Assembly (NCBI GenBank): GCA_963719995.1
Contig: CAVRDW010000005.1
Span: 576,100-640,099, forward strand
Length of the DNA stretch: 64,000 nucleotides
Source of the DNA: an uncultured beta proteobacterium
GTDB lineage: Bacteria; Pseudomonadota; Gammaproteobacteria; Burkholderiales; SG8-39
Direction of reading: 5' to 3'
Shown here one piece after another: positions 17,745-43,917 of this stretch. Under the pieces are notes generated by a model. It was not told the DNA's origin. It was given only the letters and a program-made list of their open reading frames with translations, and searched no databases. Positions within the stretch are counted from its first letter, which is position 1. Each line of letters starts with the position of its first letter. The translations under genes and the position numbers were made by a program.

Positions 17745-17802
17745 CGCAGCGCTTGGAATCCCCGTGGAGATCGTGCAGCGTCTCAATGCAGAGGTGAACC
17801 GC

Positions 17803-21546: not shown

Positions 21547-22431
21547 CTAGAAGCAGGAAAACGTCACCGGCACGCCTTCGCCGTCGACGGGGCTGTGGCC
21601 GAAGCCGATCTGGCCGCTGCCGCGCAGCATCAGCTCCTCGCGCCGCAGCACCACCACCTCGGCCTCGCCGGTGAACCGCACCCAGGTGCCATTGGAGCTG
21701 TGGTCGACGAGCACGAACTTGTCGCGCCGCCGCTCCACGCGCGCATGCAGGCGCGAGGCCTTGCGGTCGCCCACCACGACGTCGCAGGCGCCGTCGCGCC
21801 CGAGGGTGAGTTCGCCGGGCCCCTCGAAGCGCCAGCTGCGGCCCTCGTAGGCCAGGGCGAGGCTCGCGGCGCGGCTGTGATCGAGCCGGGTGCTGAGCGC
21901 GGTGAGATCGTCGCTGTCCTGCCAGAGGAATTCGTAGATCATGACCGCGTGGCGCTTGCCCTTCACCGGCACGCCGTCCAGCTTGCGCGCCCGCTCGGCC
22001 AGCGCGGGCGAGAGCCGGGCCACGGTGTCCGCCGTGGTGATGATCTGCCCGTTCTTGGCGAGGCCCGCGACGCGGGCCGCCAGGTTCACGGTGTCGCCGA
22101 ACAGGTCCCCGGCATTCTCCAGCACGGACCCGAAGTGGCAGCCGATGTGGATGCCGAGAGCTGGCGCGTCCGGCTCGAGCTGCTCGGCGGTCTTCTCCTG
22201 CATCAGGCGCGAGGCGCGCAGCGCGGCATCCGCCGTCTCGAACATGCACATCGCGCCGTCGCCCGCGGTCTTGATCACCCGGCCGCCGCACTCGGCGCAC
22301 ACCCGCGAGAGCATCGTCATCGTGCGGCCCACGCGCGCCAGGGCCTCATCGTCGCCGAGGGTCTCGTAGAGGCGTGTGCTGCCGCTGATGTCGACGAACA
22401 GGACGGCGCAGTTCGCGTGACTGGGTGACAT
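21547..22431 (-). CDS. class III adenylate/guanylate cyclase fused to a C-terminal FHA domain
   Basis: Cyclase motifs: VLFVDISGSTRL, KTAGDGAMCMF and GDTVNLAARV. The FHA pattern is LTLGRDGACDVVVGDRKASRLHARVERRRDKFVLVDHSSNGTWV. Confidence 0.9.
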   Translation of the reverse strand: MSPSHANCAVLFVDISGSTRLYETLGDDEALARVGRTMTMLSRVCAECGGRVIKTAGDGAMCMFETADAALRASRLMQEKTAEQLEPDAPALGIHIGCHFGSVLENAGDLFGDTVNLAARVAGLAKNGQIITTADTVARLSPALAERARKLDGVPVKGKRHAVMIYEFLWQDSDDLTALSTRLDHSRAASLALAYEGRSWRFEGPGELTLGRDGACDVVVGDRKASRLHARVERRRDKFVLVDHSSNGTWVRFTGEAEVVVLRREELMLRGSGQIGFGHSPVDGEGVPVTFSCF

Positions 22432-22512
22432 AAGTAACCGGGCCTTGGGTGGCCGCCCCGCAGTCTAAGGGAAACCGCGGCCGTGAATGCCCTGTCGCAG
22501 GCGCGTGCTCGA

Positions 22513-22542
22513 TTGACAGCGTTTCCTCGCGACGCCTAGTAT
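22513..22542 (+). promoter_or_regulatory. sigma70-like promoter candidate for the FecR-like/DUF3365-HAMP/STK operon
   Basis: A perfect TTGACA (22513..22518), an 18-nt spacer and TAGTAT (22537..22542), about 85 nt upstream of the 22627 ATG. Confidence 0.4.
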
Positions 22543-22626
22543 CCAAGCGCTCGAAGCCCTTGATCTTGCGGGGCGCTCGGGCACTGGGCGGTGCCGCCGG
22601 ACTGGGGGAAGGGGAACCGCGTGCGA

Positions 22627-23517
22627 ATGGTGCAACAGGGGCGCTGGGCGCTGGCGCTGCTCGCCTGGCCGTGGGCCGCCGCCGCGGCGGACCCGATGGT
22701 GACCGTCACTCTGCTCGAGGGGCCCACGACGCTCGTTCGCGGCGTGCTGCGCTACGCGCTCGCCGAGGGCGTGCGCCTGCAGCCCGGCGACATCCTCGAG
22801 GTGAGCGACAAGGGCCTCGCAGAGCTGGAGTTCACCGATGGCGTCGCCCTGGCCCTGGGCCCGAAGACCCGCGTGCTGGCGCTGTCGGTGCCCCGCGGCA
22901 AGCCGGCGCCGGGCGATTTCTATGTGACGCAGGGTGCGCTCAAGCTCGCCGGCGTGAAGCAGGGCGCGCGCCTGCGCGTCGCGACGCCCTTGCTCACGCT
23001 GCAAGCCGCGGAAGGCACCGTGGTGATGGCGCTCGGCGGCGCGGACGCATCGGTCTTCGTGGAGGCTGGCGAAGCGCGCGTGGCCGGGTCGGGCGCCGCG
23101 GGCACGGCGCCGGTGCGCCTCAAGAGCGGTGACTTTTATACTGGCGACGACAAGAAGGGCAGCGTGGCCGCGCGCCCCTCGTCGGCATTCATCGACGCGC
23201 TGCCCAAGGCGTTCCTCGACCCGCTGCCCTCGCGCATCGCGCGCTACGGCGACCGCCAGGTGCAGCCGCGGCGGCTGGAGCCCGTCAAGTACGCGGAGGT
23301 CGAGACCTGGCTCAAGGCGCCGCCCGAGATCCGCCGGCGCATGCCCGCGCGCTTCCAGTCGCGCGCGGCCGACCCGGCGTTCCGCGCCGCCCTGATCGAG
23401 AACCTCAAGTTCCATCCGGAGTGGGATCCGATCCTGTTTCCGGAGAAGTACCTGCCGAAGGAAACCGAAGCCGCGCCCGGCACTGCCGCGCCGCCACGGC
23501 CGGCGGACAAGCGCTGA
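22627..23517 (+). CDS. secreted FecR-like domain protein
   Basis: Met 13 of ORF 22591..23517 follows a GGGGAAGGGGAA purine tract. The signal is MVQQGRWALALLAWPWAAAAA. The FecR-like segment is LLEGPTTLVRG...GVRLQPGDILEVSDKGLAELEFTDGVALALGPKTRV. Confidence 0.65.
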   Translation: MVQQGRWALALLAWPWAAAAADPMVTVTLLEGPTTLVRGVLRYALAEGVRLQPGDILEVSDKGLAELEFTDGVALALGPKTRVLALSVPRGKPAPGDFYVTQGALKLAGVKQGARLRVATPLLTLQAAEGTVVMALGGADASVFVEAGEARVAGSGAAGTAPVRLKSGDFYTGDDKKGSVAARPSSAFIDALPKAFLDPLPSRIARYGDRQVQPRRLEPVKYAEVETWLKAPPEIRRRMPARFQSRAADPAFRAALIENLKFHPEWDPILFPEKYLPKETEAAPGTAAPPRPADKR

Positions 23518-23539
23518 CGGCAACGTAAGGAGCCTCGCC

Positions 23540-24415
23540 ATGAGACTGGTCGTCAAGTTCAACTTGGTGTTCCTGTTCGTGTTCCTCATCGGCCTCGCCG
23601 CGGCGGGCTACGTCTCCGACCAGCTGCTGCAGAAGAACGCGCGCGACGAGATCGTGCTCAACGCGCGCCTGGTCATGGAGTCGGCGCTCGCCACCCGCGC
23701 CTACACCTCGACGCAGGTGGGGCCGCTGCTGCAGACGCAGATGAAATACAAGTTCCTGCCGCAGTCGGTGCCCGCCTACTCCGCGACCGAGGTCTTCAAC
23801 GGCCTGCGCAAGTCATTTCCCGATTACGCCTACAAGGAAGCCACGCTCAACCCCACCAACCCGAGCAACCGCGCCAACGACTGGGAGGCCGACATCGTCC
23901 ACCAGTTCCGCAACGCCGCCGACAAGCCTGAGGTGGTGGGCGAGCGCGACACCCCGAACGGCAGGTCGTTCTTCATCGCCCGGCCGATCCAGATCAAGCA
24001 GGAGTCCTGCCTGTATTGCCACTCGACGGTCGACGCGGCGCCCAAGACGCTGGTGGAGCGCTACGGGCCGGCCAACGGCTTCGGCTGGAAGCTGAACGAG
24101 GTGATCGGCGCGCAGATCGTCTCCGTGCCGACCGAAGTGCCGATCGCGCGCGCCAACGCGGCGTTCAAGACCTTCATGGTGTCGCTCACCGTGGTGTTCG
24201 GCTTCATCTTCGTCGCGCTCAACCTGATGCTGTGGTTCATGGTCATCCGCCCGGTCACGCGGCTGTCGAAGTTCGCCGACGCGGTGAGCCAGGGCGAGAA
24301 CCTGGATGCGTCCGACTTCCCGGTCGCCAGCCGGGACGAGATCGGCGTGCTCACGCAGTCCTTCAACCGCATGAAGAAGAGCCTGGTGCAGGCGATGAAG
24401 ATGCTCGAGGGCTGA
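23540..24415 (+). CDS. DUF3365 (haem c-binding, CxxCH) periplasmic sensor domain - TM - HAMP protein with no output domain
   Basis: N-terminal TM helix, periplasmic domain with CLYCH, second TM (FMVSLTVVFGFIFVALNLMLWFMVI) and a HAMP segment (RPVTRLSKFADAVSQG...EIGVLTQSFNRMKKSL). The protein ends 10 aa later. Confidence 0.75.
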   Translation: MRLVVKFNLVFLFVFLIGLAAAGYVSDQLLQKNARDEIVLNARLVMESALATRAYTSTQVGPLLQTQMKYKFLPQSVPAYSATEVFNGLRKSFPDYAYKEATLNPTNPSNRANDWEADIVHQFRNAADKPEVVGERDTPNGRSFFIARPIQIKQESCLYCHSTVDAAPKTLVERYGPANGFGWKLNEVIGAQIVSVPTEVPIARANAAFKTFMVSLTVVFGFIFVALNLMLWFMVIRPVTRLSKFADAVSQGENLDASDFPVASRDEIGVLTQSFNRMKKSLVQAMKMLEG

Positions 24416-24430
24416 GGCGCCCCGACCCGG

Positions 24431-25948
24431 ATGACGAAGCGCAAACCGCCCGCAGTTCCCGCGCAGCTCGGCAAGTACACCATCTCGGAGGTCCTCGGCA
24501 AAGGGGCCATGGGGGTCGTCTACAAGGGTTTCGATCCCCACATCCGGCGCACCGTCGCACTCAAGACCATCCGCAAGGACCTGGTGGACGACGAGCAGGA
24601 GGCGACGCTCCTCGCCCGCTTCCACAACGAGGCCCAGGCCGCCGGCCGGCTGTCGCATCCGGGCATCGTCGGCGTGTACGAGTGGGGCGAGGAAGGCGAC
24701 GTCGCCTTTCTCGCCATGGAGTACGTCGAAGGCAACAGCCTGCGCGAGTACTTCGTGCGCGGCACGCGCTTCGACGGGCGGGACATGGTGAGCGTCATGG
24801 TGCAGGTGCTCGACGCCCTGCAGCACGCGCACGAGCAGGGGGTGTGGCACCGCGACATCAAGCCGGCCAACATCATCGTGATGAAGAACGGCAAGCTGAA
24901 GATCGCGGATTTCGGCATCGCGCGCATCGACTCCTCCAACCTCACGCAGATCGGCGCGATCATGGGCACCCCCGGCTACATGTCGCCCGAGCAGTACAGC
25001 GGGGCGAGCGTGGACTGGCGCGCCGACCTCTTTTCGGCGGGCGTCGTCATGTACCAGTTGCTGACGGGCGAGCGCCCGTTTACCGGCAGCGCCGAGTCCA
25101 TCGCCTACAAGGTCTGCCACGAGAAGCCCCGGCTGCCCTCCGAAGTGGTTCCCGCGCGCTGCAGCGAGCAGTTCGACGCGGTGGTGATGGCGGCGCTCGC
25201 CAAGAAGCCGGAGGACCGCTTCCAGGATGCGCGCGCGTTCCGCGACGCGGTGCTCGACGCGCACGCGGCCCCGGCGAACCCGACGCTGTCGGAGGAGACG
25301 ATCCTCAACGTGCCGGTGCGCTCAACGGCCCAGCTCGAGCCTTCGCTGCCCTCGCAGCCGTCGCGGCCCTCGCAGCCTCCACAGGCTTCGCAGCCATCAC
25401 AGCCGTCGCAGCCGTCGCAGCCGTCCCAATCGTCGCAGCCCCCGGGCTCCACGCCCGGCTCGCAGGCGCCCGCCGCGAAGACCGTGCCGCCCGCCGGCTG
25501 GGAGGCCGCGCCGCTCAAGCAGATCGAGCAGCAGCTGGCGCGCTACGTCGGCCCGGTCGCCAGGGTCCTGGTGCGCCGCGGCGCCAGTCAGACGACGGAT
25601 GTCGACCAGCTGTACCGCATGCTCGCGGAGAACCTGGCGAACCCCGATGAGCGCACGGCGTTTCTCGCCGGGCGGAAACCATCCGCCGCTGCGGGGGATC
25701 CAGGCGAAGCAGGCGCAACCGCAGGGGCGCGTGCGCCCGCGACCGGCCTCGCCGGGCAACTGACGCCCGAGGCCGTCGAACAGGCGACCAAGCGGCTCGC
25801 CGCCTATCTCGGCCCCATCGCGAAGGTCGTTGCAAAGAAGGCGGCGACGCAGGCAAGCGGCCGCCGCCACTTCTACCTGCTGCTCGCCGACAACCTCGCC
25901 AGTCCCAACGACCGGGCCCAGTTCCTGCACGACGTCGGCGTCGAATAG
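24431..25948 (+). CDS. Ser/Thr protein kinase with a PSQ-repeat linker and two repeated C-terminal ~60-aa modules
   Basis: GKGAMGVVY, VALK, HRDIKPANIIV and KIADFG. The linker is PSLPSQPSRPSQPPQASQPSQPSQPSQPSQSSQPP. The repeated modules are LKQIEQQLARYVGPVARVLV...LAENLANPDERTAF and VEQATKRLAAYLGPIAKVVA...LADNLASPNDRAQF. Confidence 0.9.
   Translation: MTKRKPPAVPAQLGKYTISEVLGKGAMGVVYKGFDPHIRRTVALKTIRKDLVDDEQEATLLARFHNEAQAAGRLSHPGIVGVYEWGEEGDVAFLAMEYVEGNSLREYFVRGTRFDGRDMVSVMVQVLDALQHAHEQGVWHRDIKPANIIVMKNGKLKIADFGIARIDSSNLTQIGAIMGTPGYMSPEQYSGASVDWRADLFSAGVVMYQLLTGERPFTGSAESIAYKVCHEKPRLPSEVVPARCSEQFDAVVMAALAKKPEDRFQDARAFRDAVLDAHAAPANPTLSEETILNVPVRSTAQLEPSLPSQPSRPSQPPQASQPSQPSQPSQPSQSSQPPGSTPGSQAPAAKTVPPAGWEAAPLKQIEQQLARYVGPVARVLVRRGASQTTDVDQLYRMLAENLANPDERTAFLAGRKPSAAAGDPGEAGATAGARAPATGLAGQLTPEAVEQATKRLAAYLGPIAKVVAKKAATQASGRRHFYLLLADNLASPNDRAQFLHDVGVE
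25341..25443 (+). repeat. imperfect tandem 9-bp (CCGTCGCAG, Pro-Ser-Gln) coding repeat inside the kinase gene
   Basis: About 11 successive CCn-TCG-CAG-like units are visible in the DNA and translate to (PSQ)n. Confidence 0.85.
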
Positions 25949-25978
25949 CCGGCGGCAGCCACCCCTTCGTTTCTCGAC

Positions 25979-27238
25979 ATGAAGCGCGCCTTCCACGGCT
26001 GGAAGATGGTCGCCGCCGGCGGCGGCATCCAGTTCCTGCAGGCGAGCTTGCTGCTGCAGTCCTTCGGCGCCTACGTCGCGGTGCTGCGCGACGCCTTCGG
26101 CTGGTCGAAGACCGAGCTGTCCTTCGCCGCGGCGCTGCACCAGATGGAAGCCGCCGTCATCGGACCGATCCTGGGCTGGATCATCGACCGCTTTGGCGCA
26201 CAGGGCGTGATCCGCATGGGAGTCACCGTGCTCGGCATCGGCTTCATGCTGCTGTCGCAGATCGAGAGCCTGATCGCGTTCTACGGCGCGTTCATCGTCA
26301 TCGCGCTGGGCTCGAGCATGTGCGGCTTCATGCCGCTCAACGTCTCGCTCATCTACTGGTTCGAGAAGAAGCGCGCGCGCGCCCTCTCGACGCTGGGCCT
26401 CGGGCTCGCGCTCGGCGGCATCGCGGTGCCACTGGTCGCCTGGTGCATGACCCAGTACGGCTGGCGCGCGACCGCCTTCGGCTCGGGCGTGCTCATCCTG
26501 CTCGCCGGCCTGCCGCTTTCCTTCGTCATCCGCGGCCGGCCGCACCTCTACGGGGAGTTCGTCGACGGCGAGCCGCTGCCCGCGACGCCGAGCAAGATGC
26601 AGGCGATGCACAAGACAGACGCCACGCGCGACTTCACCGCGCGCGAGGCGCTGCGCACGCCCGCGTTCTGGCTGCTCTCTCTCGGGCACGGCTTCGCCCT
26701 GCTCGTGGTGAGCGCGGTCAACGTGCACGCCATCACGCACCTCAAGGAGGGCCTCGGCTACTCCGTGGAGGCGGCGGCGCTCTACATCATGCTGATGACG
26801 ATCGCGCAGATCGGCGGCATCGCCATCGGCGCGGCCACCGGCGACCGCTTCGACAAGCGCCTGATCTGCGCCGGGTGCATGGTGATGCACATGGCGGGAT
26901 TGCTCTGCCTCACCTACGCGACGAGCGTGACGATGATCGTCGGTTTCGCGCTGCTCCACGGCGTGGCCTGGGGCCTCAGGGGGCCGTTCATGCAGGCGAT
27001 CCGCGCCGACTACTTCGGCGTCAGCGCGATCGCATTGATCCTGGGGCTATCCTTCACGATCGTGGTGCTCGGCCAGATCGGCGGGCCGATGATCGCCGGC
27101 TTCCTTGCGGACGTGACAGGCAACTACCGCAGCGGCTTCACGGTGCTCGCGCTGCTGGCCGGGCTGGGATCGGCGTTCTTCCTGCTGGCGAAGAAGCCGC
27201 CGCGGCCGGCGCTGGCAGCCGGCAACAAGGGGCAGTGA
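25979..27238 (+). CDS. MFS transporter
   Basis: 419 aa with about 12 hydrophobic helices and an MFS-type loop motif (GWIIDRFGAQG). Confidence 0.8.
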   Translation: MKRAFHGWKMVAAGGGIQFLQASLLLQSFGAYVAVLRDAFGWSKTELSFAAALHQMEAAVIGPILGWIIDRFGAQGVIRMGVTVLGIGFMLLSQIESLIAFYGAFIVIALGSSMCGFMPLNVSLIYWFEKKRARALSTLGLGLALGGIAVPLVAWCMTQYGWRATAFGSGVLILLAGLPLSFVIRGRPHLYGEFVDGEPLPATPSKMQAMHKTDATRDFTAREALRTPAFWLLSLGHGFALLVVSAVNVHAITHLKEGLGYSVEAAALYIMLMTIAQIGGIAIGAATGDRFDKRLICAGCMVMHMAGLLCLTYATSVTMIVGFALLHGVAWGLRGPFMQAIRADYFGVSAIALILGLSFTIVVLGQIGGPMIAGFLADVTGNYRSGFTVLALLAGLGSAFFLLAKKPPRPALAAGNKGQ

Positions 27239-27326
27239 CGCCCGGGCTGCGGTTTGTGCGGTGCGTCTTTGCACTGCCGGTCAATCCGTATAAGGTTTGC
27301 GCTCCGCGAATGAGGAGGACTTCAAG

Positions 27327-27779
27327 ATGATCCGCCTGTCCATCAACGGCAAGACCCACAACGTCGACGTCGATCCGAACACGCCCCTGCTCTGGGCGAT
27401 TCGCGAACAGGTCGGACTGACCGGCACGAAGTACGGCTGCGGTGTCGCGCAGTGCGGCGCCTGCACCGTGCACGTGGACGGCGCGCCGGTGCGCGCGTGC
27501 GCGCTGCCGGTCAGCGCCGCCGCAGGCAAGAAGATCACCACCATCGAGGGGCTCGCCGCGGGCGGCAAGCTGCACAAGGTGCAGCAGGCCTGGATCGAGC
27601 ACGAGGTTCCGCAATGCGGCTACTGCCAGTCCGGCATGATCATGGCCGCCGTGGCGCTGCTGAAGAGCAATCCCAAGCCCACCGACGCGGATATCGACGC
27701 CGCGATGACCAACATCTGCCGCTGCGGCACGTTCCAGGAAGTGCGCCAAGCGATTCACGCTGCCGCCGCCAAGGCGTAA
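27327..27779 (+). CDS. iorA: (2Fe-2S)-binding small subunit of an IorAB/aldehyde-oxidase-type molybdenum hydroxylase
   Basis: MIRLSINGK..., with Cys clusters [12 protein letters not shown] and CGYCQSG...CRCGT. A GAGGAGG RBS lies upstream of ATG 27327. Confidence 0.9.
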
Positions 27780-27791
27780 GGGGGAACGACC

Positions 27792-29981
27792 ATGTCCGCC
27801 ATTCCGAACATCAGCCGCCGTTCCTTCATCGTCGGTTCCGCCGCCGCCGCGGGTGGCCTCGCCATCGGCCTGCGCCTGCCGCCCTTCGGCCCCGCCGTCG
27901 TGCGTGCGGCCGACGGCGCACCGGAGATCAATGCCTGGGTCGTGATCCGGCCCGACGACACCGTCGTCATCCGCATGGCCCGCTCCGAAATGGGCCAGGG
28001 CACGATCACCGGCCTCGCGCAGCTCGTCGCCGAGGAGCTGGAGTGCAACTGGTCGAAGATCGTCTACGAGTACCCGACCCCGGGCGAGAGCGTGAAGCGC
28101 AAGCGGGTCTGGGGCGACTTCTCCACCGGCGGCAGCCGCGGCATCCGCATGTCGCACGAGTACGTGAGGAAGGGAGGCGCTGCCGCGCGCATGATGCTCG
28201 TGCAGGCGGCCGCCAACCAGTGGAAGGTGCCCGTGTCCGAGTGCACGGCGTCCAACAGCATCATCACGCACGGGCCTTCCAAACGCCGCATCTCCTACGG
28301 CAAGGTGGCGGAGGCCGCCGCGAAGCTCGAAGCGCCGAAGGACGTGAAACTGAAGGACCCGAAGGAGTGGAAGGTCATCGGCAAGCCGGTCAAGCGCCTG
28401 GACACCACCAACAAGGTGAACGGCAAGCAGGTCTACGGCTTCGACTTCAAGCTCCCGGGCATGCTCAACGCCGCGATCACGGAATGCCCAGTGTTTGGCG
28501 GCAAGGTGAAGAGCTTCGACGCCGCGCGCGTGGCGAACCTCAAGGGCGTGAAAAAGGTGCTGCAGGTCGGGGATTCGGCGGTCGCGGTGGTCGCCGATCA
28601 TTGGTGGAACGCGAAGAGGGCGCTCGACCAGCTGCCGGTGGTGTGGGACGAGGGCCCCAACGCCAAGGTCTCCAGCGCCACCATCGCCGAGCAGCTGAAG
28701 GCGGGGCTCGACGCCGAGCAGGCGTTCGTCGGCCAGACGGAGGGTGACGCGAAGGCGGCGCTCGCCGCCGCGGCGAAGAAGATCGAGGCGGTCTACTCAT
28801 ATCCCTTCCAGAACCACGCCTGCATGGAGCCGATGAACGCGACGGCGCGCTACACGCCCGACAAGTGCGAGGTGTGGGTGCCGACGCAGGACGGCGAACG
28901 ATCATTCGCGGCCGTGCTGTCGGCCTCGGGGCTGCCGGCGGACAAGTGCGAGGTCTACAAGATCAACCTCGGCGGCGGCTTCGGCCGGCGCGGCGCCTTC
29001 CAGGACTACGTGACGCAGGCAGTGCGCATCGCGAAGGAGATGCCGGGCACACCGGTGAAGCTGCTCTGGTCGCGCGAGGAAGACATGGTGCAGGGCCGCT
29101 ACCACCCGGTGATGCAGTGCAAGCTGGTCGGCGGCTTCGACAGCGGCAACAACCTCACCGGCCTGCACATGCGCCTCTCGGGCCAGTCGATCCTTTCCGT
29201 GGTCTTCCCGGCGGTCGTAGAGCAGCAGAAGGGGCGCGACCCGCTCGTCTTCCAGGGCGTGTTCGAGTCCGGCGAGCACGCAATCAGCTACAACTTCCCG
29301 AACACGCTGATCGACCATGCCATGCGCAACACGCACGTGCCGCCGGGCTTCTGGCGCGGCGTCAACATCAACCAGAACGCCATCTTCATCGAGTGCTTCA
29401 TGGACGAGCTGGCGGAAGCCGCCGGCCAGGATCCGGTCGAGTTCCGCCGCAAGTTCATGGGCAGGCACCCGCGCAACCTCGCCGTGCTGAACGCGGTGGC
29501 CGAGCGCATCGGCTGGACCAAGCCCGCGCCGGCCGGCATGTTCCGCGGCGTCGCGCAGATGAAAGCCTTCAACAGCTTCGTCGCGGCAGCCTGCGAGATC
29601 TCGGTCAAGGACGGCAACAAAGTGAAGGTGCACCGCATCGTTGCCGCCACCGACTGCGGCTACGCCGTCAACCCGGCGCAGATCGAGCGCCAGGTGTCGG
29701 GCTCCTTCGTCTACGGCCTGTCGGCCCTCTTCATGCAGGAGTGCACGGTGAAGGACGGCGCCATCGAGCAGAAGAACTTCGACACCTACCAGTCGATGCG
29801 CATCGCGCAGATGCCGAAGGTGGAGACGATCATCCTGCAGGGCGGCGGCGACACCTGGGGCGGCATCGGCGAGCCGACCATCTGCGTCGCGGCGCCGGCG
29901 GTGCTGAACGCCTTCTACCGGGCCACGGGCAAGCGCATCCGCAGCGCGCCGCTGAAGAACCACGGCATCGAGCTGGTGTGA
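27792..29981 (+). CDS. iorB: molybdopterin-binding large subunit (isoquinoline 1-oxidoreductase beta / aldehyde dehydrogenase type), Tat-exported
   Basis: Twin-arginine signal SRRSFIVGSAAAAGGLAIG. 729 aa with EMGQGT, the IorB-typical layout and a C-terminal GIGEP motif. Confidence 0.85.
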   Translation: MSAIPNISRRSFIVGSAAAAGGLAIGLRLPPFGPAVVRAADGAPEINAWVVIRPDDTVVIRMARSEMGQGTITGLAQLVAEELECNWSKIVYEYPTPGESVKRKRVWGDFSTGGSRGIRMSHEYVRKGGAAARMMLVQAAANQWKVPVSECTASNSIITHGPSKRRISYGKVAEAAAKLEAPKDVKLKDPKEWKVIGKPVKRLDTTNKVNGKQVYGFDFKLPGMLNAAITECPVFGGKVKSFDAARVANLKGVKKVLQVGDSAVAVVADHWWNAKRALDQLPVVWDEGPNAKVSSATIAEQLKAGLDAEQAFVGQTEGDAKAALAAAAKKIEAVYSYPFQNHACMEPMNATARYTPDKCEVWVPTQDGERSFAAVLSASGLPADKCEVYKINLGGGFGRRGAFQDYVTQAVRIAKEMPGTPVKLLWSREEDMVQGRYHPVMQCKLVGGFDSGNNLTGLHMRLSGQSILSVVFPAVVEQQKGRDPLVFQGVFESGEHAISYNFPNTLIDHAMRNTHVPPGFWRGVNINQNAIFIECFMDELAEAAGQDPVEFRRKFMGRHPRNLAVLNAVAERIGWTKPAPAGMFRGVAQMKAFNSFVAAACEISVKDGNKVKVHRIVAATDCGYAVNPAQIERQVSGSFVYGLSALFMQECTVKDGAIEQKNFDTYQSMRIAQMPKVETIILQGGGDTWGGIGEPTICVAAPAVLNAFYRATGKRIRSAPLKNHGIELV

Positions 29982-30382
29982 GGGGATTGGCGCTCGCCCT
30001 GGTCACGGCTGCCGCGACCAGCGCTTTCGCCAGCGACGAAATGCCCGCTTCGCTGACCGGCGCCAAGGGCGATCCGGTCCGCGGACGGGCGATCGTCGCC
30101 AGCCGCCAGGCGGGGCTTTGCCTGCTTTGCCACAGCGGCCCGTTTCCCGAGGAGCGCTTCCAGGGCGAGCTCGCCCCCGACCTGAGGAGCGCAGCGCGCT
30201 TCACCGAGGGCCAGATCCGCATGCGCATCGTGGATCCGCGCAAGGCCAATCCCGAGAGCATCATGCCGGCGTATTTCCGGACCGAGGGACTGACTCGCGT
30301 CGCGCCCGCGTATCGCGGCAAGACGATTTTCAGCGCCGAGCAAGTGGAGGATGTGGTGGCCTACCTGATGACGCTGCGATGA
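29978..30382 (+). CDS. soxX: SoxX-like monohaem c-type cytochrome
   Basis: The GTG start overlaps the iorB stop (GTGTGA). The signal peptide is VRGLALALVTAAATSAFA. The rest is GDPVRGRAIVASRQAGLCLLCHSGPFPEERFQGELAPDL...IMPAYFR...VEDVVAYLMTLR (CxxCH). Confidence 0.75.
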   Translation: MRGLALALVTAAATSAFASDEMPASLTGAKGDPVRGRAIVASRQAGLCLLCHSGPFPEERFQGELAPDLRSAARFTEGQIRMRIVDPRKANPESIMPAYFRTEGLTRVAPAYRGKTIFSAEQVEDVVAYLMTLR

Positions 30383-30849
30383 CCACGCGTCGACAGTTCC
30401 TGGTGCTCGCCGGGGGCGCGCTCGCCGGCGGCGCGGCGCAGGCGCAGCTGCCGCCCAACATCGAGGCGCTGCGCAAGGCGGCGCTCGCGGAAGCCGTGCG
30501 CAAAGTGACGGGCGGCGCCCAGGTGCGCGCCGGCAGGGTGAAGCTCGACGTGCCGCCGCTCATCGACAACGGCAACACGGTGCCGGTCTCGGTCGAGGTC
30601 GAGAGCCCGATGACCGCGATCGACCACGTCAAGGCGATCCACGTCTTCACCGAGAAGAACCCGCAGCCCTATGTCATCAGCGCGCATCTCGGGCCGCGCG
30701 CCGGCCGCGCGCGGATCACCACGCGCGCGCGCATCGCCGACACGGGGACGGTGCTGGCGATCGCGCAAATGAGCGACGGCTCGTTCTGGTCCGACAGCGT
30801 CAACGTGGTGGTGACGCTCTCTGCCTGCCTGGAAGACGGGTTGATCTAG
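30379..30849 (+). CDS. soxY: SoxY-like sulfur/thiol carrier protein with a non-canonical C-terminal arm (…TLSACLEDGLI instead of …GGCGG)
   Basis: ATGA overlap with soxX. The Tat signal is MTTRRQFLVLAGGALAGGAAQA. The SoxY core is VKLDVPPLIDNGNTVPVSVEV...AIHVFTEKNPQP. A single Cys lies 7 residues from the end. Confidence 0.75.
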   Translation: MTTRRQFLVLAGGALAGGAAQAQLPPNIEALRKAALAEAVRKVTGGAQVRAGRVKLDVPPLIDNGNTVPVSVEVESPMTAIDHVKAIHVFTEKNPQPYVISAHLGPRAGRARITTRARIADTGTVLAIAQMSDGSFWSDSVNVVVTLSACLEDGLI

Positions 30850-31170
30850 ATGACCCGCGTCGTCGTCAACCTGCCGCAGCGCGCGCGGCGCGGCGAGATC
30901 ATCGAGATCCGCACGCTTGCCGGGCACAGCATGGAGACCGGCTTTCGCCGCACGCAGCTCGGCGAGCTGATCCCGCGCAACATCATCACGCGCTTCACCT
31001 GCAGCTACAACGGCGTGGAGGTCTTCAGCGCCGACCTGCACCCGGCGGTTGCGGCCAATCCGCTGATCGCCTTTAGCACCGTCGCCACTGAGAGCGGCAC
31101 GCTGGAGTTCCGCTGGAGCGGCGACAACGGCTTCAGCGCCACGCACACCGCTTCGATCACCGTAGAGTGA
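30850..31170 (+). CDS. soxZ: SoxZ-like carrier complex partner
   Basis: The ATG directly abuts the soxY TAG. It has RARRGEIIEIRTLAGHSMETG...ITRFTCSYNGVEVFSADL; 106 aa. Confidence 0.8.
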   Translation: MTRVVVNLPQRARRGEIIEIRTLAGHSMETGFRRTQLGELIPRNIITRFTCSYNGVEVFSADLHPAVAANPLIAFSTVATESGTLEFRWSGDNGFSATHTASITVE

Positions 31171-31940
31171 GCGTCCGCGTCCATTGGCTGCTCCTCGTCT
31201 GCGCGCTCGCCTCGGCCGCCCGGGCAGAGATCCCGCTCGCCGAGCGGCGTTCGGGCTACACGGACATGAGCCCCCAGACACGCGCCATGCAGGACGACGA
31301 CGCCACCAACCCGGCGACGCTCTGGGTTCTGGACGGCGAAGCGCTATGGGCGAAGAAGGCCGGTGCCGCGGCGCTTGCCTGCGCCGACTGCCACCGCGAC
31401 GCGCGCGAGAGCATGAAGGGCGCGGCGGCGCGCCATCCTGCCTACGACGCGGTGACGGGGACGCTCGTCAATCTCGAGGGGCGCATCAACCGCTGCCGTG
31501 CCGAGCGCCAGAAGGCAACGCCGCTCGCCTACGAGAGCCGCGAGCTGCTTGCGCTCACCGCGTTCGTCGCGCGGCAGTCGCGCGGGCTGCCGATCGCAGT
31601 CGAGTCGAGCGCGCGCACGCAGGCGTTTCTCGAGGCGGGCCGCGCCGCGTTCCGGCGCCGCCAGGGCCAGCTCGATCTCGCCTGCGTGCACTGCCACGAC
31701 GAGCGCGCGGGCAAGCGGCTCGCCGGCACGCTGATTCCGCAGGGCCATCCCACCGCCTACCCCGTCTATCGCCTCGAGTGGCAGGCCGTGGGGTCGCTGC
31801 ACCGTCGCCTGCGCAATTGCCTGGTGGGCATCCGCGCCGAACCCTATGCGCTCGGCGCGCGCGAGTACGTCGAGCTCGAGATGTACCTGATGTGGCGCGC
31901 GCGCGGCATGCCGCTCGAGGCGCCTGGCGTGCGGCCCTGA
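31167..31940 (+). CDS. soxA: SoxA-like dihaem c-type cytochrome
   Basis: GTGA overlap with soxZ and a signal peptide. Two CxxCH motifs (CADCH, CVHCH) plus a distal RLRNC Cys candidate for the haem ligand. Confidence 0.8.
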   Translation: MSVRVHWLLLVCALASAARAEIPLAERRSGYTDMSPQTRAMQDDDATNPATLWVLDGEALWAKKAGAAALACADCHRDARESMKGAAARHPAYDAVTGTLVNLEGRINRCRAERQKATPLAYESRELLALTAFVARQSRGLPIAVESSARTQAFLEAGRAAFRRRQGQLDLACVHCHDERAGKRLAGTLIPQGHPTAYPVYRLEWQAVGSLHRRLRNCLVGIRAEPYALGAREYVELEMYLMWRARGMPLEAPGVRP

Positions 31941-32021
31941 TCCGGCGGCGCGGTTCCCGCAGCGCACAGTACAGCTAACTACCCGGTTACAATTTCCCCA
32001 CCAATCCAGGGAGGCAAATCC

Positions 32022-32973
32022 ATGAAGAGGATTCTCGCAGCACTGCTGTTGACCGCGGCCGCGGCCGCGCAGGCCCAGTACCCGCAGCGTCCCGTGCAGG
32101 TGATCGTGCCCTGGGGCGCGGGCGGCGGTACGGACGCCACGGCGCGCATCATCGCCACGCTGCTGGAGAAGGAACTCAAGCAGCCGTTCAACGTCGTCAA
32201 CCGCACCGGCGGCTCCGGCGTGGTCGGCCACGACGCCATCGCCAAGGCGGCGCCCGACGGCTACACCATCGGCATGATCACGGTGGAGATCACGATGATG
32301 CATCACGTGGGCCTCACGCCGCTCAAGCACACCGACTACACGCCGATCGGCCTGGTGAACGCCGATCCCGCGGGCGTGCACGTGCGCGTGGACTCGCCCT
32401 ACAAGTCGGTGAAGGACCTGCTCGCCGCGATCAAGGCGAACCCCGGCAAGATGAAGGCCTCGGGCACCGGCCAGGGCGGCATCTGGCACCTCGCCATCGC
32501 CGGCCTCCTGAAAGACCAGGGCATCGATCCGAACGCGCTGCCCTGGGTGCCTTCCAACGGCGCCGCACCGGGACTGCAGGACATGGTGGCGGGCGGCGTG
32601 GAAGTGGTGCCCTGCTCGGTGCCCGAAGCGCGCTCGATGATCGACGCGGGCAAGGTGCGCGCGCTTGCCATCATGGACGCCAACCCGCCGGCGCTCTACC
32701 CGAACGTGCCGACGCTGAAGAAGGAACTGGGCACCGACTGGGCGATCGCCGCCTGGCGCGTGATCGCGGCGCCCAAGGGCATTCCGGCTGAAGCGCAGCG
32801 CACGCTCACCGCGGCCCTGAAGAAGGTGTACGACTCCAAGGAGTACAAGGATTTCATGGCGAGCCGCGGCTTCGGCGTGATCTGGGCCGACCCGGAGGGC
32901 ACGGCGAAGTTCATGGCGGCATCGGACGCCGAACCTCGGCGCCGCGCTGAAAGCCGTAGGCCTCGCGAAGTAA
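32022..32973 (+). pseudogene. tctC: TctC substrate-binding protein of the tctCBA operon, 3' end frame-shifted by one extra base at ~32934 (pseudogene or assembly indel)
   Basis: A clean TctC sequence runs up to ...AKFMAASDAE. The family-typical ending LGAALKAVGLAK-stop (TAA 32971..32973) is in the +1 frame. The annotated ORF instead runs on through tctB as Arg-rich nonsense. The span is 952 nt (3n+1). Confidence 0.8.
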
Positions 32974-32982
32974 TCCCGCGGG

Positions 32983-33444
32983 GTGAAGGTCCACGACGCG
33001 CTGACCGGCGCGGGCCTCGCCGCGCTCGGCGGCGTGGTCCTCTGGCACATCCAGGGGTTTCCGGCCATGCCGGGCCAGAAGTTCGGCCCGGCGTGGTTTC
33101 CTGGTGCGATTGCGATCGGGCTACTCGTGTGCGGCGTGATGCTGATGCTGCGCGCCGGGCGCGGCCCCTGGCTCGCGCGGCCGGAGTGGACCCGGCGCGC
33201 ACGGCCGCTCGCCGGCGTCGCCTCGGTGGTCGGCGGCCTGTTGTTCTACGTGCTCGCCGCCGACCGGCTCGGCTTCCACCTGACCGGCTTCCTGCTGCTC
33301 CTGCTGTGGACGCGCGTGCTGGGAGCCGGTTGGCGCATGGCAATCGCGGTGTCGGTGATTGCGACGCTGGCCATCCACCTGTCTTTCTACAAGCTGCTGC
33401 GCATTCCCCTGCCCTGGGGCGTGCTCGAGCGCTTCGCGTTCTGA
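32983..33444 (+). CDS. tctB: tripartite tricarboxylate transporter small membrane subunit TctB
   Basis: 153 aa, four hydrophobic helices, located between tctC and tctA, GTG start. Confidence 0.8.
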   Translation: MKVHDALTGAGLAALGGVVLWHIQGFPAMPGQKFGPAWFPGAIAIGLLVCGVMLMLRAGRGPWLARPEWTRRARPLAGVASVVGGLLFYVLAADRLGFHLTGFLLLLLWTRVLGAGWRMAIAVSVIATLAIHLSFYKLLRIPLPWGVLERFAF

Positions 33445-33445
33445 G

Positions 33446-34936
33446 ATGACCACTGCGATCTTCGCCCAGGCGCTGGCGCAGGTGTTCGATCCCTACGTGC
33501 TGTGGGTGATCCTCGGCTCGGCAGTCTTTGGCCTGTTCGTCGGAGCGGTGCCGGGACTCACCGCGACCATGGCCACGGCGCTGCTGGTGCCGGTCACCTT
33601 CTTCATGCCGCCGGTGCCGGCGATCGCCTCGATCGTCACCGCCACCGCGATGGCGATCTTCGCTGGCGACATTCCCAGCTGCTTCCTGCGCATGCCCGGC
33701 ACGCCGGCCTCCGCCGCCTACACCGACGAGGCCTACGCCATGACCAAGAAGGGCCAGGGCGAGCTGGCGCTGGGCGCCGGGCTGGTGTTCTCGGTGATCG
33801 GCGGCCTCTTTGGCACCGCGGTGCTGATCCTCGCCGCGCCGGCGCTGGCGGAAGTGGCGCTCAAGTTCTCTTCCTTCGAATACTTCTGGCTGGTGGTGCT
33901 GGGCCTCGCCAGCGCGGTGTTCCTCGCGCTCGCCAACCCGCTGAAAGGCGTCGTGTCGCTGCTGCTGGGTCTGCTGGTCGCGTCAGTCGGCCTGGACAAC
34001 CCGGCGGGCTTCCCGCGCTTCACCTTCGGCAACGCGGAGCTCGCCGGCGGCTTGACCCTCATTCCGATCATGATCGGCATGTTCGCGGTGTCGGAGATCC
34101 TGCGCAACGTCGCGGCCATCGACAAGCCCTGGGAGATGGCGCAGGCGAAGATCGGCAACGTGTTCCAGGGCATGTGGGGGTTGATGCGGCGCTACCCGTT
34201 GCAGACGCTGCGCGGCAGCGTGCTCGGCACCGCGATCGGAGCGCTGCCCGGCGCGGGCGCGGACATCGCGGCGTGGATGTCTTACGCCGTATCGAAGAAA
34301 TTCTCCAGGGAGCGAGAGAAGTTCGGCACCGGCCACGTCGAGGGCATCATCGAGGCGGGCGCCTCCAACAACAGCGCGATCGCCGGCGCCTGGATCCCGG
34401 CGCTGGTGTTCGGCATCCCGGGCGACTCGATCACCGCCATCGTCATCGGCGTGCTTTACATCAAGGGCCTGAACCCCGGGCCGACGATTTTCATGACCAA
34501 TGCGGTGGCGATCTACGCCATCTTCATGGTGTTCATCCTCGCCAACCTGATCATGCTGCCGCTCGGCATCGCCGCCATCAAGGGCGCCAAGCAGATGCTG
34601 CGCGCGCCGCGCGAGCTCCTGCTGCCGGTGATCCTCCTTTTCTGCATCGTGGGGTCGTTTGCCATCAACAACTCGGCCTTCGGCGTGCTGCTGATGCTCG
34701 GCTTCGGCGTCATCGCGTACCTGATGGAGGAGAACGGCTTCCCGGTGGCCCCCGCGATCCTCGGCATGGTGCTCGGCGCGATGCTGGAGGAAAACTTCAT
34801 CAGCTCGATGATCAAGGCCGACGGGCGTTTCCTCGCCTTCTTCGAGCGGCCGATCGCCGGGGGGCTCGGGGCGTTGACGATCGCGGTGCTGCTGGTGCCG
34901 CTTCTGCGCTACGCCGCGCAGATGCGCCGCCGCTGA
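33446..34936 (+). CDS. tctA: tripartite tricarboxylate transporter large permease TctA
   Basis: Met 30 of ORF 33359..34936, 1 nt after the tctB stop. 496 aa and polytopic, with GAVPGLTATMATALLVP and GALPGAGADIAAW motifs. Confidence 0.9.
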   Translation: MTTAIFAQALAQVFDPYVLWVILGSAVFGLFVGAVPGLTATMATALLVPVTFFMPPVPAIASIVTATAMAIFAGDIPSCFLRMPGTPASAAYTDEAYAMTKKGQGELALGAGLVFSVIGGLFGTAVLILAAPALAEVALKFSSFEYFWLVVLGLASAVFLALANPLKGVVSLLLGLLVASVGLDNPAGFPRFTFGNAELAGGLTLIPIMIGMFAVSEILRNVAAIDKPWEMAQAKIGNVFQGMWGLMRRYPLQTLRGSVLGTAIGALPGAGADIAAWMSYAVSKKFSREREKFGTGHVEGIIEAGASNNSAIAGAWIPALVFGIPGDSITAIVIGVLYIKGLNPGPTIFMTNAVAIYAIFMVFILANLIMLPLGIAAIKGAKQMLRAPRELLLPVILLFCIVGSFAINNSAFGVLLMLGFGVIAYLMEENGFPVAPAILGMVLGAMLEENFISSMIKADGRFLAFFERPIAGGLGALTIAVLLVPLLRYAAQMRRR

Positions 34937-34937
34937 C

Positions 34938-35297
34938 CTAGGGCGCCTCTGATTTATTCCCGCGTGCGCGACGGTGGTGATTTTCGTGCAGGGCGAGACA
35001 GCAGACGCCGCCGTGTACTTGACGTCCACAAGGCGGCTGATGGCGATGCCATGCGCGAAAATCACCCGCGTCCCTCCAGGCGGCGAGGCCGCGATGTGGG
35101 GTTCAACGCAAAGGCCTCGCCGCCTTCGGGTTGCGGCCGGAAGCCCGCGTTGGATCGCTTACGATAGCGCGATGACACGGGCGCCGGCGTTGTTGCTCGG
35201 CCTTACGATATCGACATATCGCTGCGGCCGCGCGCCTAGCCGGCGCCGCGTTCCCGCCGCAACGCGCCACCGCGCGAATAGATCAGAGGCTCCCTAG
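34938..35297 (+). mobile_element. 360-bp MITE-like non-autonomous element, copy A (~27-nt imperfect terminal inverted repeats, CTAG at both ends)
   Basis: The left end CTAGGGCGCCTCTGATTTATTCCCGCG matches the reverse complement of the right end, CTAGGGAGCCTCTGATCTATTCGCGCG. The copy aligns along its full length with the inverted copy at 51123..51482. The core is highly self-complementary and has no transposase ORF. Confidence 0.8.
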
Positions 35298-40045: not shown

Positions 40046-40101
40046 CGAGGCGGACTCTTTGTGCGATGATTTGCGCGCAACTAGAGGAGGAGAGACTCGC
40101 A

Positions 40102-40968: not shown

Positions 40969-40993
40969 GAGAGGAATCGGGGGAGCGACGAAC

Positions 40994-41476
40994 ATGGCGA
41001 CTACACACAAGGTGTCATTCAAGCTCAACGGCAAGCCGGTGGAGGCGACGGTCGAGGCCCGCGAGCTGCTGATCTACACGCTGCGCGAGAAGCTCGCGCA
41101 TACCGGGCCTCACATCGGCTGCGAGACCTCGCATTGCGGCGCCTGCACGGTGGATCTCAACGGCATGTCGGTCAAGTCCTGCACCGTCCTGACGGTGCAA
41201 TGCGAGGGCGCCGAGATGACCACCATCGAAGGCATGGAACAGGGCGGCGCGCTGCATGCGCTGCAGCAGGCATTTCACGAGGAGCACGGCCTGCAGTGCG
41301 GCTACTGCACGCCCGGCATGATCACGCGCGCCTACCGCCTGCTGAAGGAGAACCCGAATCCGAGCGAGCAGGACATCCGCAAGGGCATCGCCGGCAACCT
41401 GTGCCGCTGCACGGGTTACCAGAACATCGTCAAGGCGGTGCAATCCGCGGCGAAGAAGCTCGCGGCCGCGCGCTAA
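40994..41476 (+). CDS. coxS: CO dehydrogenase-type [2Fe-2S] small subunit
   Basis: [11 protein letters not shown] and CGYCTPGM...CRCTGY cluster motifs; 160 aa. Confidence 0.9.

Positions 41477-41502: not shown

Positions 41503-43917
<2,415 letters not shown>

Follow-up and report, generated by a model that had tools for sequence, protein, structure and literature searches.

Known systems related to the ior-sox cluster

The Sox system is the known periplasmic route to a protein cysteine persulfide, and every known partner of its carrier protein SoxY, namely SoxXA, SoxB and SoxCD, acts on an adduct of the carrier cysteine. Here we describe a six-gene cluster in which homologs of SoxX, SoxY, SoxZ and SoxA are encoded next to an IorAB-type molybdenum hydroxylase; whereas the molybdoenzyme of canonical Sox systems belongs to the sulfite-oxidase family, the conserved partner here belongs to the xanthine-oxidase family. 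The cluster is located at positions 27327-31940 of a 64-kb stretch of DNA (the window; contig CAVRDW010000005.1, positions 576,100 to 640,099, of assembly GCA_963719995.1) from an uncultured beta proteobacterium of the lineage SG8-39. Functional linkage within this system, a Sox carrier module combined with an IorAB-type hydroxylase that is widespread in soil bacteria, is strongly supported, and we infer with high confidence that IorAB and the SoxY-related carrier with its SoxZ cooperate directly in the periplasm.

Regarding the hydroxylase, the closest described enzymes are the isoquinoline 1-oxidoreductase (EC 1.3.99.16) of Brevundimonas diminuta and a membrane-bound aldehyde dehydrogenase of Gluconobacter (8GY3), which share with the window enzyme a small subunit carrying two [2Fe-2S] clusters and a large MoCoBD subunit exported by the twin-arginine translocation (Tat) pathway, and which likewise have neither a hammerhead domain nor a flavin adenine dinucleotide (FAD) subunit. 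The window enzyme differs from them in its low identity to 8gy3_C and in being followed by sox-like genes, with or without fcc genes, instead of a multihaem cytochrome gene. The 8gy3 enzyme has three subunits, one of which, the third, is a cytochrome c. In the xanthine-oxidase family a Mo-OH group attacks an electrophilic carbon and hydride passes to the Mo=S ligand; desulfo forms of these enzymes are inactive, and in known biological systems the sulfur of Mo=S is donated by a cysteine persulfide on a protein.

Regarding the gene cluster, Kappler and Nouwens (2013) described soxX2Y2Z2A2F2 (Snov_1977-1982) of Starkeya novella beside a xanthine-oxidase-family enzyme (Snov_1975/1976); its proteome showed neither SoxAX2 nor SoxYZ2, transcript levels during growth on glucose, methanol or thiosulfate were very low, and the authors left the function open and considered a possible lack of functional significance (PMC3797975). 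This second sox cluster resembles the Xanthobacteraceae loci analyzed here in encoding a xanthine-oxidase-family enzyme, flavocytochrome c, SoxX, SoxY, SoxZ and SoxA while missing SoxB and SoxCD, and its gene order indicates that it is very probably the same system; the window version differs in having no flavocytochrome c genes and in the direct coupling of iorB to soxX. Neither the variant arm of SoxY nor the wide conservation of the cluster was reported in that paper, which was the only one found in our literature search to name SoxAX together with the xanthine oxidase family. The term 'AACIE' did not occur in the literature searched, and the pairing of an IorAB-type enzyme with SoxX, SoxY or SoxZ gave unrelated papers only. 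The original prediction, made from the sequence of the window, knew of no characterised example; the system was indeed never characterised, but the cluster had already been noted in 2013 (PMC3797975). The pairing is thus recorded but uncharacterised, while its breadth, its link to the flavoprotein FccB and the co-variation of carrier arm and enzyme were not found in the literature searched.

Further sox genes of related kinds have been described. A 2026 survey counted about 1,000-1,300 out-of-cluster paralogues of soxA, soxX, soxY and soxZ and left them unexplained (PMC13500833), and a 2024 phylogeny of the SoxY family dropped sequences without a GGC motif, so that the carrier class described below was never seen there. 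The soxY2 gene of Bradyrhizobium diazoefficiens, possibly a member of this class, is dispensable for thiosulfate oxidation (PMC5748708). A SoxYZ-like carrier is encoded, together with a rhodanese and a SoxH-like hydrolase, with periplasmic pyrroloquinoline quinone (PQQ) alcohol dehydrogenases (PP_2666/2677/2678; TIGR04557), where enzyme maturation or redox control was suggested (PMC12997753). It resembles the present system as a SoxY/SoxZ-derived protein beside a periplasmic dehydrogenase in organisms that are not sulfur lithotrophs, and differs from it in being a fused SoxYZ, in its quinoprotein client and in having a rhodanese and a metallohydrolase instead of SoxXA/FccAB. TIGR04557 was a weak secondary match of both the window carrier and the window SoxZ.

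Organization of the gene cluster

The six genes at 27327-31940 lie in series on the + strand. The gene iorA (27327..27779) encodes a small subunit of 150 amino acids (aa) that carries two [2Fe-2S] clusters and lacks a signal peptide, and iorB (27792..29981, 729 aa) encodes the molybdopterin-binding large subunit, which has a Tat signal and is of the IorB/AldH type without a hammerhead domain. These are followed by a soxX-like gene with a GTG start for a monohaem cytochrome c (29978..30382, 134 aa), the gene for a SoxY paralogue of the 'AACIE arm' carrier type with a Tat signal and the residue Cys150 (30379..30849, 156 aa), soxZ for the partner of this carrier, which has no signal peptide (30850..31170, 106 aa), and soxA for a dihaem cytochrome with the haem motifs CADCH and CVHCH and an Arg-x3-Cys motif (31167..31940, 257 aa). 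Direct reading and profile searches placed the six open reading frames (ORFs) and their gene calls as the original prediction had them, and profile hidden Markov model searches assigned IorA, IorB, SoxX, SoxZ and SoxA to the families as named.

Spacing of the ORFs throughout this region is too tight for separate promoters. The 12-nt gap between iorA and iorB contains a ribosome-binding site (GGGGGAA); iorB and soxX overlap by GTGA at 29978-29981 (soxX GTG at 29978-29980, iorB TGA at 29979-29981), and soxX and the soxY paralogue by ATGA at 30379-30382; the TAG of the soxY paralogue (30847-30849) abuts the soxZ ATG at 30850, and soxZ and soxA overlap by GTGA at 31167-31170. All junctions are present where they had been predicted, although the string GTGTGA given for iorB/soxX takes in the last iorB codon, the overlap itself being GTGA, and the proposed translational coupling is borne out by these overlapping or abutting start and stop codons. 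A scan of 25800-35200, uninformative at the 69% G+C of this genome, showed no site resembling a promoter, and terminator-like sites were not more numerous than in shuffled sequence. The six genes are one tightly packed unit and very probably one operon. The next gene downstream is tctC, as had been stated, with a match to Pfam PF03401.

The molybdenum hydroxylase

IorA matches Pfam Fer2 (9.9e-10) and Fer2_2 (1.3e-29), and its translation contains the motifs CGVAQCGAC...C and CGYCQSG...CRCG, that is, eight cysteines in two canonical [2Fe-2S] motifs; identity with orthologues in related loci is 70-90%. IorB matches Pfam MoCoBD_1 and MoCoBD_2, and its twin-arginine signal SRRSFIV, noted earlier from inspection, scored above the cutoff of TIGR01409 (20.3 bits versus 16.7). 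Its entire sequence can be aligned with 8gy3_C (E 1.6e-70), which is the large subunit of the membrane-bound aldehyde dehydrogenase from Gluconobacter, and the motifs EMGQG, GGGFGRR and GIGEP are conserved in this comparison. The GIGEP motif (Glu694), which matches GLGEP of 8gy3_C, is nearly invariant in the IorB alignment; since IorB keeps the catalytic Glu of the G-E-P motif, it presumably acts as an ordinary, Mo=S-dependent hydroxylase. None of the curated equivalog models matched IorB, every other NCBIfam match being far under its cutoff.

A gene for an FAD-binding subunit of the CoxM/XdhB type was not detected within 25979-34936, nor is a dedicated multihaem cytochrome c subunit of the AldFGH (8GY3) type encoded in the cluster, whose only c-type cytochromes are SoxX and SoxA; in relatives, too, no such gene recurs, the small cytochrome of about 100 aa encoded before fccB being the one exception. 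Comparison of 145 sox-linked with seven standalone IorB proteins revealed no position that was at least 93% conserved in the linked proteins and different in the standalone ones, and no cysteine specific to either group; the standalone enzymes are not a distinct subtype.

The SoxY-related carrier and its arm

The SoxY paralogue best matches TIGR04487, 'SoxY-related AACIE arm protein' (196.5 bits versus a cutoff of 172, model positions 2-146 of 146), and remains below the cutoff of TIGR04488, the model of true GGCGG SoxY (108.8 versus 125). The original prediction called this gene SoxY; it does encode a carrier with the cysteine, but one belonging to an already named paralogue family that had been missed. 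Its C-terminus reads ...TLSACLEDGLI, with Cys150 within ...VVVTLSACLEDGLI, so the window version of the arm is S-A-C-L-E-D, of the type A-A-C-[IL]-E that replaces GGCGG. When aligned to Paracoccus SoxY (2ox5_Y, VKVTIGGC), Cys150 falls exactly on the carrier cysteine, and it is invariant in the alignment of relatives of this carrier. An AlphaFold2 model has a beta-sandwich core with a predicted local distance difference test (pLDDT) score of 83-93 and an unstructured tail at 149-156 (pLDDT <50), which in this model is presumably flexible, as for a swinging arm.

The arm type is conserved well beyond the window. In the loci of our first set (L001-L087), all 89 ORFs of this carrier type have [AGS]-[AS]-C-x-[ED] at the C-terminus, followed by a few further residues. 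When 1.84 billion representatives of 50%-identity clusters were searched with the window carrier, 1,940 clusters matched at E <= 1e-3, and among the best 150 matching representatives 89 have this arm type and seven the GGCG type. These best 150 representatives are at most 280 aa long, the longest being SoxY-SoxZ fusions, and none is joined to IorB or to a cytochrome, as would be seen in Rosetta-stone fusions. A distinct, conserved arm motif together with an invariant cysteine points to purifying selection on a diverged function. Other non-canonical SoxY arms were also seen in this search (P0143, P0178, P0205, P0219, P0236, P0245 and P0257), for example SACEDGSG, GACDALMFRY, AACTNPWL and AACVVL, which are hints of further uncharacterised carrier classes.

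SoxX, SoxZ, SoxA and export

The other three Sox proteins were judged against the curated NCBIfam equivalog cutoffs, which all of them pass: SoxX, with the haem motif CLLCH, at 71.3 bits (TIGR04485, cutoff 61), SoxZ at 82.5 bits (TIGR04490, cutoff 76; Pfam SoxZ 9e-27), and SoxA at 224.6 bits (TIGR04484, cutoff 110). SoxA aligns over its full length with Rhodovulum SoxA (1h31_A, E 5.8e-44) and keeps both CxxCH motifs, and its RRLRNC aligns with DRFRGC of 1h31_A, the Arg-x3-Cys motif of the Cys-ligated active-site haem. Canonical thiosulfate oxidation requires SoxXA, SoxYZ and the sulfate thiohydrolase SoxB, whereas the sulfane dehydrogenase SoxCD is optional, truncated systems being without it. 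The cluster shares with the canonical systems of Paracoccus pantotrophus and Rhodovulum sulfidophilum three proteins at equivalog level, the haem and Cys-ligand motifs of SoxA, the position of the carrier cysteine, and a carrier with a Tat signal whose SoxZ has none. It differs from them in the arm (SACLEDGLI versus GGCGG, the true-SoxY model failing) and in that SoxB and SoxCD were found neither in the cluster nor in the window, nor as recurrent neighbours in 160 related loci.

The N-terminus of the SoxY paralogue, MTTRRQFLVLAGG, contains a Tat motif by inspection, and those of SoxX and SoxA, also inspected by eye, are short and hydrophobic, end in AFA/ARA and are Sec-like. These signals agree with the export routes originally assigned to the three proteins and, with that of IorB, uphold the predicted periplasmic location of all parts. 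IorA and SoxZ lack a signal, which by analogy with PaoABC and canonical SoxYZ fits their putative export as passengers of IorB and SoxY.

Conservation of the ior-sox linkage

The linkage was examined from both sides. In the forward direction, an alignment of relatives of the window carrier was scanned against one genome per species, at least 550 stretches matched, and the best 80 loci were kept; neighbours were identified by tblastn with the window proteins, and the 69 loci with at least 3 kb of upstream DNA were counted as informative. In 67 of these, iorA-iorB is located immediately upstream on the same strand, a count that includes two loci (L034 and L061) added by eye since iorB is fragmented there. 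The forward loci belong to Betaproteobacteria, to Bradyrhizobium, Xanthobacteraceae and other Alphaproteobacteria, and to Methylomirabilota/Rokubacteria, and their flanking genes differ. In the reverse direction, an IorB alignment was scanned against metagenome contigs, and fcc and/or sox-like genes lay directly downstream in 52 of the 63 loci with at least 1 kb of sequence after iorB and were missing in the other 11. Same-strand adjacency at these frequencies far exceeds chance and identifies the cluster as conserved and ancient.

The adjacency, for which the original prediction had suggested a check across Burkholderiales genomes, is kept well beyond that order, in Alphaproteobacteria and Methylomirabilota, in both directions of the comparison. 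As a fixed unit the pairing holds in most loci but not in all; it is ancient and widespread, yet not obligatory. Two lineages have a transporter gene of the major facilitator superfamily (MFS) followed by soxXYZA without iorAB (L002/L008 and L013), and standalone iorAB of the same clade occurs without sox-like genes (e.g., L098, L153, L155 and L158). The Sox-like proteins of L002 are as similar to those of the window as are the proteins of L003, which has iorAB, so they are not visibly decaying.

The closest loci belong to uncultured Betaproteobacteria of soil. In a relative with a SoxY 99% identical (L088, an 800-kb metagenome contig) the gene order is the same as in the window, while iorB is split in two and soxX truncated there, both being intact in the window. 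L002 has at 9560-9605 a mini-ORF of nine codons (MRRLAGPQQ and stop) with its own Shine-Dalgarno sequence, GGGAGGAG, whose TGA overlaps the GTG of soxX; that it is a deletion scar fusing the start of iorA to the end of iorB was considered and set aside, the DNA similarity being too weak for proof. The labels of the metagenome-assembled genomes of L028, L030, L044, L054, L056 and L067 (Streptomycetaceae, Enterobacteriaceae, Bordetella parapertussis) look unreliable, the loci themselves being clearly of the proteobacterial soil type.

Architecture variants and additional members

Many relatives of the window cluster have additional genes. In 40 of 67 genome loci a 1.3-kb gene between iorB and soxX encodes an FccB/SoxF flavoprotein with a Tat signal, which matches the flavin subunit of flavocytochrome c sulfide dehydrogenase (5n1t_A, E 4e-127), and a cytochrome c of about 100 aa is often encoded before fccB. 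The six genes originally listed are correct for the window, where iorB overlaps soxX and no gene for an FccB-type flavoprotein is present in the cluster, but the FccB/SoxF protein of many relatives, with or without the small cytochrome c, had been missed. Clustering of 2,393 flanking ORFs from 87 loci identified FccB and the small cytochrome c as the only recurrent neighbours, the other frequent clusters being antisense shadow ORFs or lineage-specific genes; none corresponded to SoxB, SoxCD or an XdhC-like chaperone.

Regarding gene order, iorAB followed directly by soxXYZA, as in the window, was found in at least 27 loci, the same order with cytochrome and fccB genes between iorB and soxX in at least 22, and with fccB alone in at least 16. 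In the two commonest architectures, iorB is followed immediately by the gene of a small c-type cytochrome, either SoxX or an FccA-like protein; in Methylobacterium the gene for the FccA-like cytochrome overlaps the iorB stop. About 12 loci have two or three tandem iorAB pairs before one set of fcc and sox-like genes, with up to three pairs in Xanthobacteraceae (e.g., L077 and L108). A distant IorAB paralogue is also encoded directly downstream of soxA in several loci (L020 11765-14386, L025 11706-14327, and L082 3371-6035 on the - strand), with 56-59% identity to the window protein for IorA and 32-33% for IorB.

Three loci (L026, L028 and L044) have the order iorAB-soxYZ-iorA'B'-soxX-soxY'Z'-soxA, and two (L054 and L056) have iorAB-soxYZ with no soxXA nearby, which identifies IorAB and the variant SoxYZ as the tightest-linked unit. 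The arm of the second carrier in the double clusters is VTESACLD[QM]S, as against VTL[SA]ACLEE in the first, and in these alignments the arm is seen to diversify along with the IorAB paralogue. The presence of a separate soxYZ, with a separate arm motif, for every iorAB pair points to a direct partnership of enzyme and carrier.

The full cluster is present in cultured Neorhizobium galegae (pNgVX) and Methylobacterium sp. NMS14P (pNMS14P1), where the Prokaryotic Genome Annotation Pipeline names a (2Fe-2S)-binding protein, a molybdopterin-binding protein, cytochrome c, an FAD oxidoreductase, SoxX, a SoxY-related AACIE arm protein, SoxZ and SoxA, the Neorhizobium gene table omitting the molybdopterin-binding subunit and cytochrome c.

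Possible functions of the cluster

On balance it seems probable that the variant SoxYZ is a dedicated partner of IorAB whose arm enters the active site of IorB, for the turnover of a protein-tethered substrate or for periplasmic sulfuration of the molybdenum cofactor (Moco), either of which would be the first known of its kind. Our tentative preference is for sulfuration, in which a persulfide on the arm of the SoxY paralogue would be delivered to the molybdenum centre and would make or restore Mo=S after export. SoxXA, and in many relatives FccAB/SoxF too, would oxidatively place a sulfane sulfur from sulfide or thiosulfate on Cys150; the persulfide-bearing arm (A-C-L-E-[DE]) would dock in the substrate funnel of IorB and pass its sulfur to the molybdenum centre, where the Mo=S ligand would be formed or restored. 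IorAB activated in this way would oxidise a free aldehyde or N-heterocycle, with electrons passing via the two [2Fe-2S] clusters to c-type cytochromes, and the acid product would perhaps be imported by TctCBA in the lineage of the window. The Sox-like module would then be a device for sulfur delivery and maturation rather than for energy-yielding thiosulfate oxidation, and a periplasmic counterpart of the cytoplasmic cysteine-persulfide route of the XdhC/NifS and ABA3 types. If so, it would share with XdhC/PaoD plus a NifS-type desulfurase and with ABA3/MOCOS the donation of the sulfido ligand by a protein cysteine persulfide, while those proteins act in the cytoplasm on the cofactor before its insertion, take their sulfur from L-cysteine and are unrelated to Sox in sequence.

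All companions conserved with the carrier, namely SoxXA and FccAB/SoxF, load sulfane sulfur, and none of them is an enzyme for the unloading of a Sox carrier. One Sox-like module often occurs with two or three tandem IorAB paralogues, and beside distant ones of 33% identity, and its sharing by several paralogues suits a service role. Also in keeping with sulfuration are the absence of XdhC-like genes from the clusters, their occurrence in non-lithotrophic hosts and, in Starkeya, their low expression on thiosulfate; the hosts include Neorhizobium and Methylobacterium, which are not known as sulfur lithotrophs.

Several points weigh against sulfuration. The proposal is built on sequence comparison, and we know of no in vivo precedent for the sulfuration of an assembled, exported holoenzyme. 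Periplasmic enzymes of the IorAB and PaoABC types mostly do without such a module, and the link to sox-like genes is confined to this IorB clade and its neighbours. Thiosulfate loaded by SoxXA would be a thiosulfonate that needs SoxB to become a persulfide, so for clusters of the window type, which have no FccAB, sulfide must be assumed as the substrate. With four to six bulky residues after the cysteine the arm is less slim than GGCGG, and the deep molybdenum site may be out of its reach. Four to six genes are a heavy cost for cofactor upkeep, and 1:1 translational coupling looks more like that of a stoichiometric complex or a pathway. Intact soxXYZA moreover persists without adjacent iorAB (L002 and L013), as does iorAB of the same clade without sox-like genes.

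Nearly as likely as sulfuration, and like it a possibility to be held tentatively, is the carrier-tethered oxidation put forward in the original prediction, in which IorAB would replace SoxB/SoxCD and process sulfur species bound to Cys150 after loading by SoxXA/FccAB; one example would be a (per)thiohemiacetal with an aldehyde, oxidised to a thioester-like product and then released. Action on an adduct of the homologous cysteine is established for all known partners of SoxY, the cysteine of the window carrier aligns with it, and IorAB is the only conserved enzyme of the cluster that is not a loader. The arm has moreover changed with the partner enzyme, from GGCGG with SoxB-SoxCD to A-C-L-E-[DE] with IorAB, each IorAB paralogue of the double clusters has its own carrier with a distinct arm, and the link is limited to one IorB clade, as for a dedicated pathway. 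In work on deoxyribose and deoxyribonate, some IorAB-type enzymes reportedly oxidise sugars at hemiacetal carbons. Genes for the oxidative catabolism of deoxyribose and deoxyribonate include ones for enzymes of the IorAB type (PMC6365646). The present data agree at least equally well with sulfur donation by the arm or with a mere sharing of cytochromes. A tethered substrate is hard to reconcile with the chemistry of the family, which has no obvious action on persulfide or thiosulfonate sulfur, and an organic adduct would leave the sulfur-specific loaders SoxXA and FccB hard to explain. Nor would it readily account for a single carrier module common to several divergent IorAB paralogues, for standalone IorAB of the same clade without a distinguishing residue, or for the fact that no candidate substrate or product-release enzyme is conserved nearby.

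It is rather unlikely that IorAB, FccB and SoxA are three independent periplasmic dehydrogenases feeding a common set of small c-type cytochromes. The cytochrome c subunit of other IorAB-type enzymes would in that case be replaced by trihaem SoxXA and/or the small cytochrome, the variant SoxYZ would serve the sulfur branch only, and the genes would be co-expressed since their substrates arise together, for example as aldehyde and sulfide from an organosulfur compound. Such shared electron transfer would suit the cytochrome c third subunit of the closest solved relative (8gy3), the lack of any cytochrome in the cluster besides SoxX and SoxA, the small c-type cytochrome gene that follows iorB in the two commonest architectures, and the separability of the ior and sox-like modules in nature. 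Against this, iorAB-soxYZ is found with no gene for a cytochrome in L054 and L056 and in the first units of L026, L028 and L044, which argues that the carrier and not the cytochromes is the closest partner of IorAB. The sulfur branch would still be without SoxB or another means of carrier regeneration, no conserved upstream enzyme producing aldehyde and sulfide was found, and the carrier arms have diversified alongside the IorB paralogues. Use of IorAB as a reductase by reverse electron flow was rejected, as electrons at the level of cytochromes are inferred to be too weakly reducing.

That two unrelated operons merely stand side by side, by chance or through lineage history, with soxXYZA as a superfluous or degenerating copy of a canonical sox locus that supplies SoxB/SoxCD from another site, is very improbable, and such coincidental adjacency is essentially excluded. 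In favour of this reading, Starkeya novella has a complete sox cluster besides the second one, which is hardly expressed (PMC3797975), and B. diazoefficiens soxY2, possibly of this type, is dispensable for thiosulfate oxidation (PMC5748708). It is contradicted by same-strand adjacency across three groups with varied flanks (67/69 and 52/63), by overlapping start and stop codons, by an arm and cysteine under purifying selection, by the size of the family (89 of the best 150 representatives with this arm type) and by hosts not known to oxidise thiosulfate.

Genomic surroundings

The operon is preceded by a Ser/Thr kinase gene and an MFS transporter gene (25979..27238, + strand; the orthologue in L002/L088 has Pfam MFS_1), the latter sharing 84-86% identity with its counterparts immediately before soxX in L002 and L013. 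It is followed by the tripartite tricarboxylate-type transporter genes tctC-tctB-tctA (32022..34936, + strand). These occur in the same order in relatives and are kept in L002, which has no iorAB, but are absent from alphaproteobacterial and Methylomirabilota loci. Both tctCBA and the MFS gene are lineage-specific neighbours whose membership in the system is not shown. The tctC gene (32022-~32972) has, compared with L088 and L002, one extra C at 32925-32935 (near 32930), which shifts the last ~20 codons so that the ORF continues to 33449 across tctB; this 1-nt insertion is a sequencing error or a very recent frameshift.

The G+C content of the window is 65-73%. Domains of SoxB (Metallophos/5_nucleotid_C) were detected neither in the operon nor elsewhere among the approximately 46 Pfam-scanned ORFs of the window, and these also gave no domains of SoxCD (Oxidored_molyb/Mo-co_dimer), so that the local absence of soxB and soxCD in the original prediction holds over this range. 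An XdhC-type domain was likewise not among the Pfam matches of the window, and the two ORFs at its expected site, in a Cox-like locus (45621-46586 and 47281-48477), gave no Pfam match. This second xanthine-oxidase-family locus, at 40066-47284 on the + strand and with no export signal detected, is separate from the cluster and encodes, by Pfam, a CoxM-like FAD subunit (FAD_binding_5; 40066-40968), a large molybdenum subunit with a hammerhead domain (within ORF 41134-43917), CoxG (43942-44526), a MoxR/CoxD-like AAA ATPase (44540-45445) and a MobA-like nucleotidyltransferase (46589-47284), all on the + strand; the MobA-like protein could make a cytosine dinucleotide cofactor.

Signalling genes lie at 21547-25948, between PPK2 and the MFS gene: a guanylate cyclase/FHA gene (- strand), then FecR-like, Tll0287-like and Ser/Thr kinase genes; in L002, which is syntenic apart from this block, PPK2 and the MFS gene are direct neighbours. 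The 64 kb contain at least five receptors of the TctC/Bug family, at 4289-5260 (-), 9221-10189 (+), 11117-12760 (-), 17734-18783 (+) and 32022 (+), the first two called by resemblance alone, as well as a TauD/TfdA dioxygenase (6737-7603, -) and an MlrC-like M81 peptidase (7677-9272, -). This receptor, dioxygenase and peptidase content is typical of Burkholderiales-like genomes.

Implications

Second sox clusters without SoxB are common, and a large share of the 69 best-matching informative loci hold theirs in a fixed partnership with a molybdenum hydroxylase. Carriers of the cluster that are in culture include Starkeya novella, Neorhizobium galegae, Methylobacterium sp. NMS14P and Bradyrhizobium spp. 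For molybdenum enzymology, the gain would be either a new, extracytoplasmic installation or repair of the sulfido ligand or a new class of substrates bound to a carrier protein. If the proposed partnership is true, Sox carriers have a second, non-lithotrophic function, and many orphan soxXYZA clusters of soil Alpha- and Betaproteobacteria and Methylomirabilota are not genes of thiosulfate oxidation, in which case surveys that count soxX, soxY, soxZ or soxA would overcall the potential for sulfur oxidation, for example in Methylomirabilota and soil Proteobacteria.

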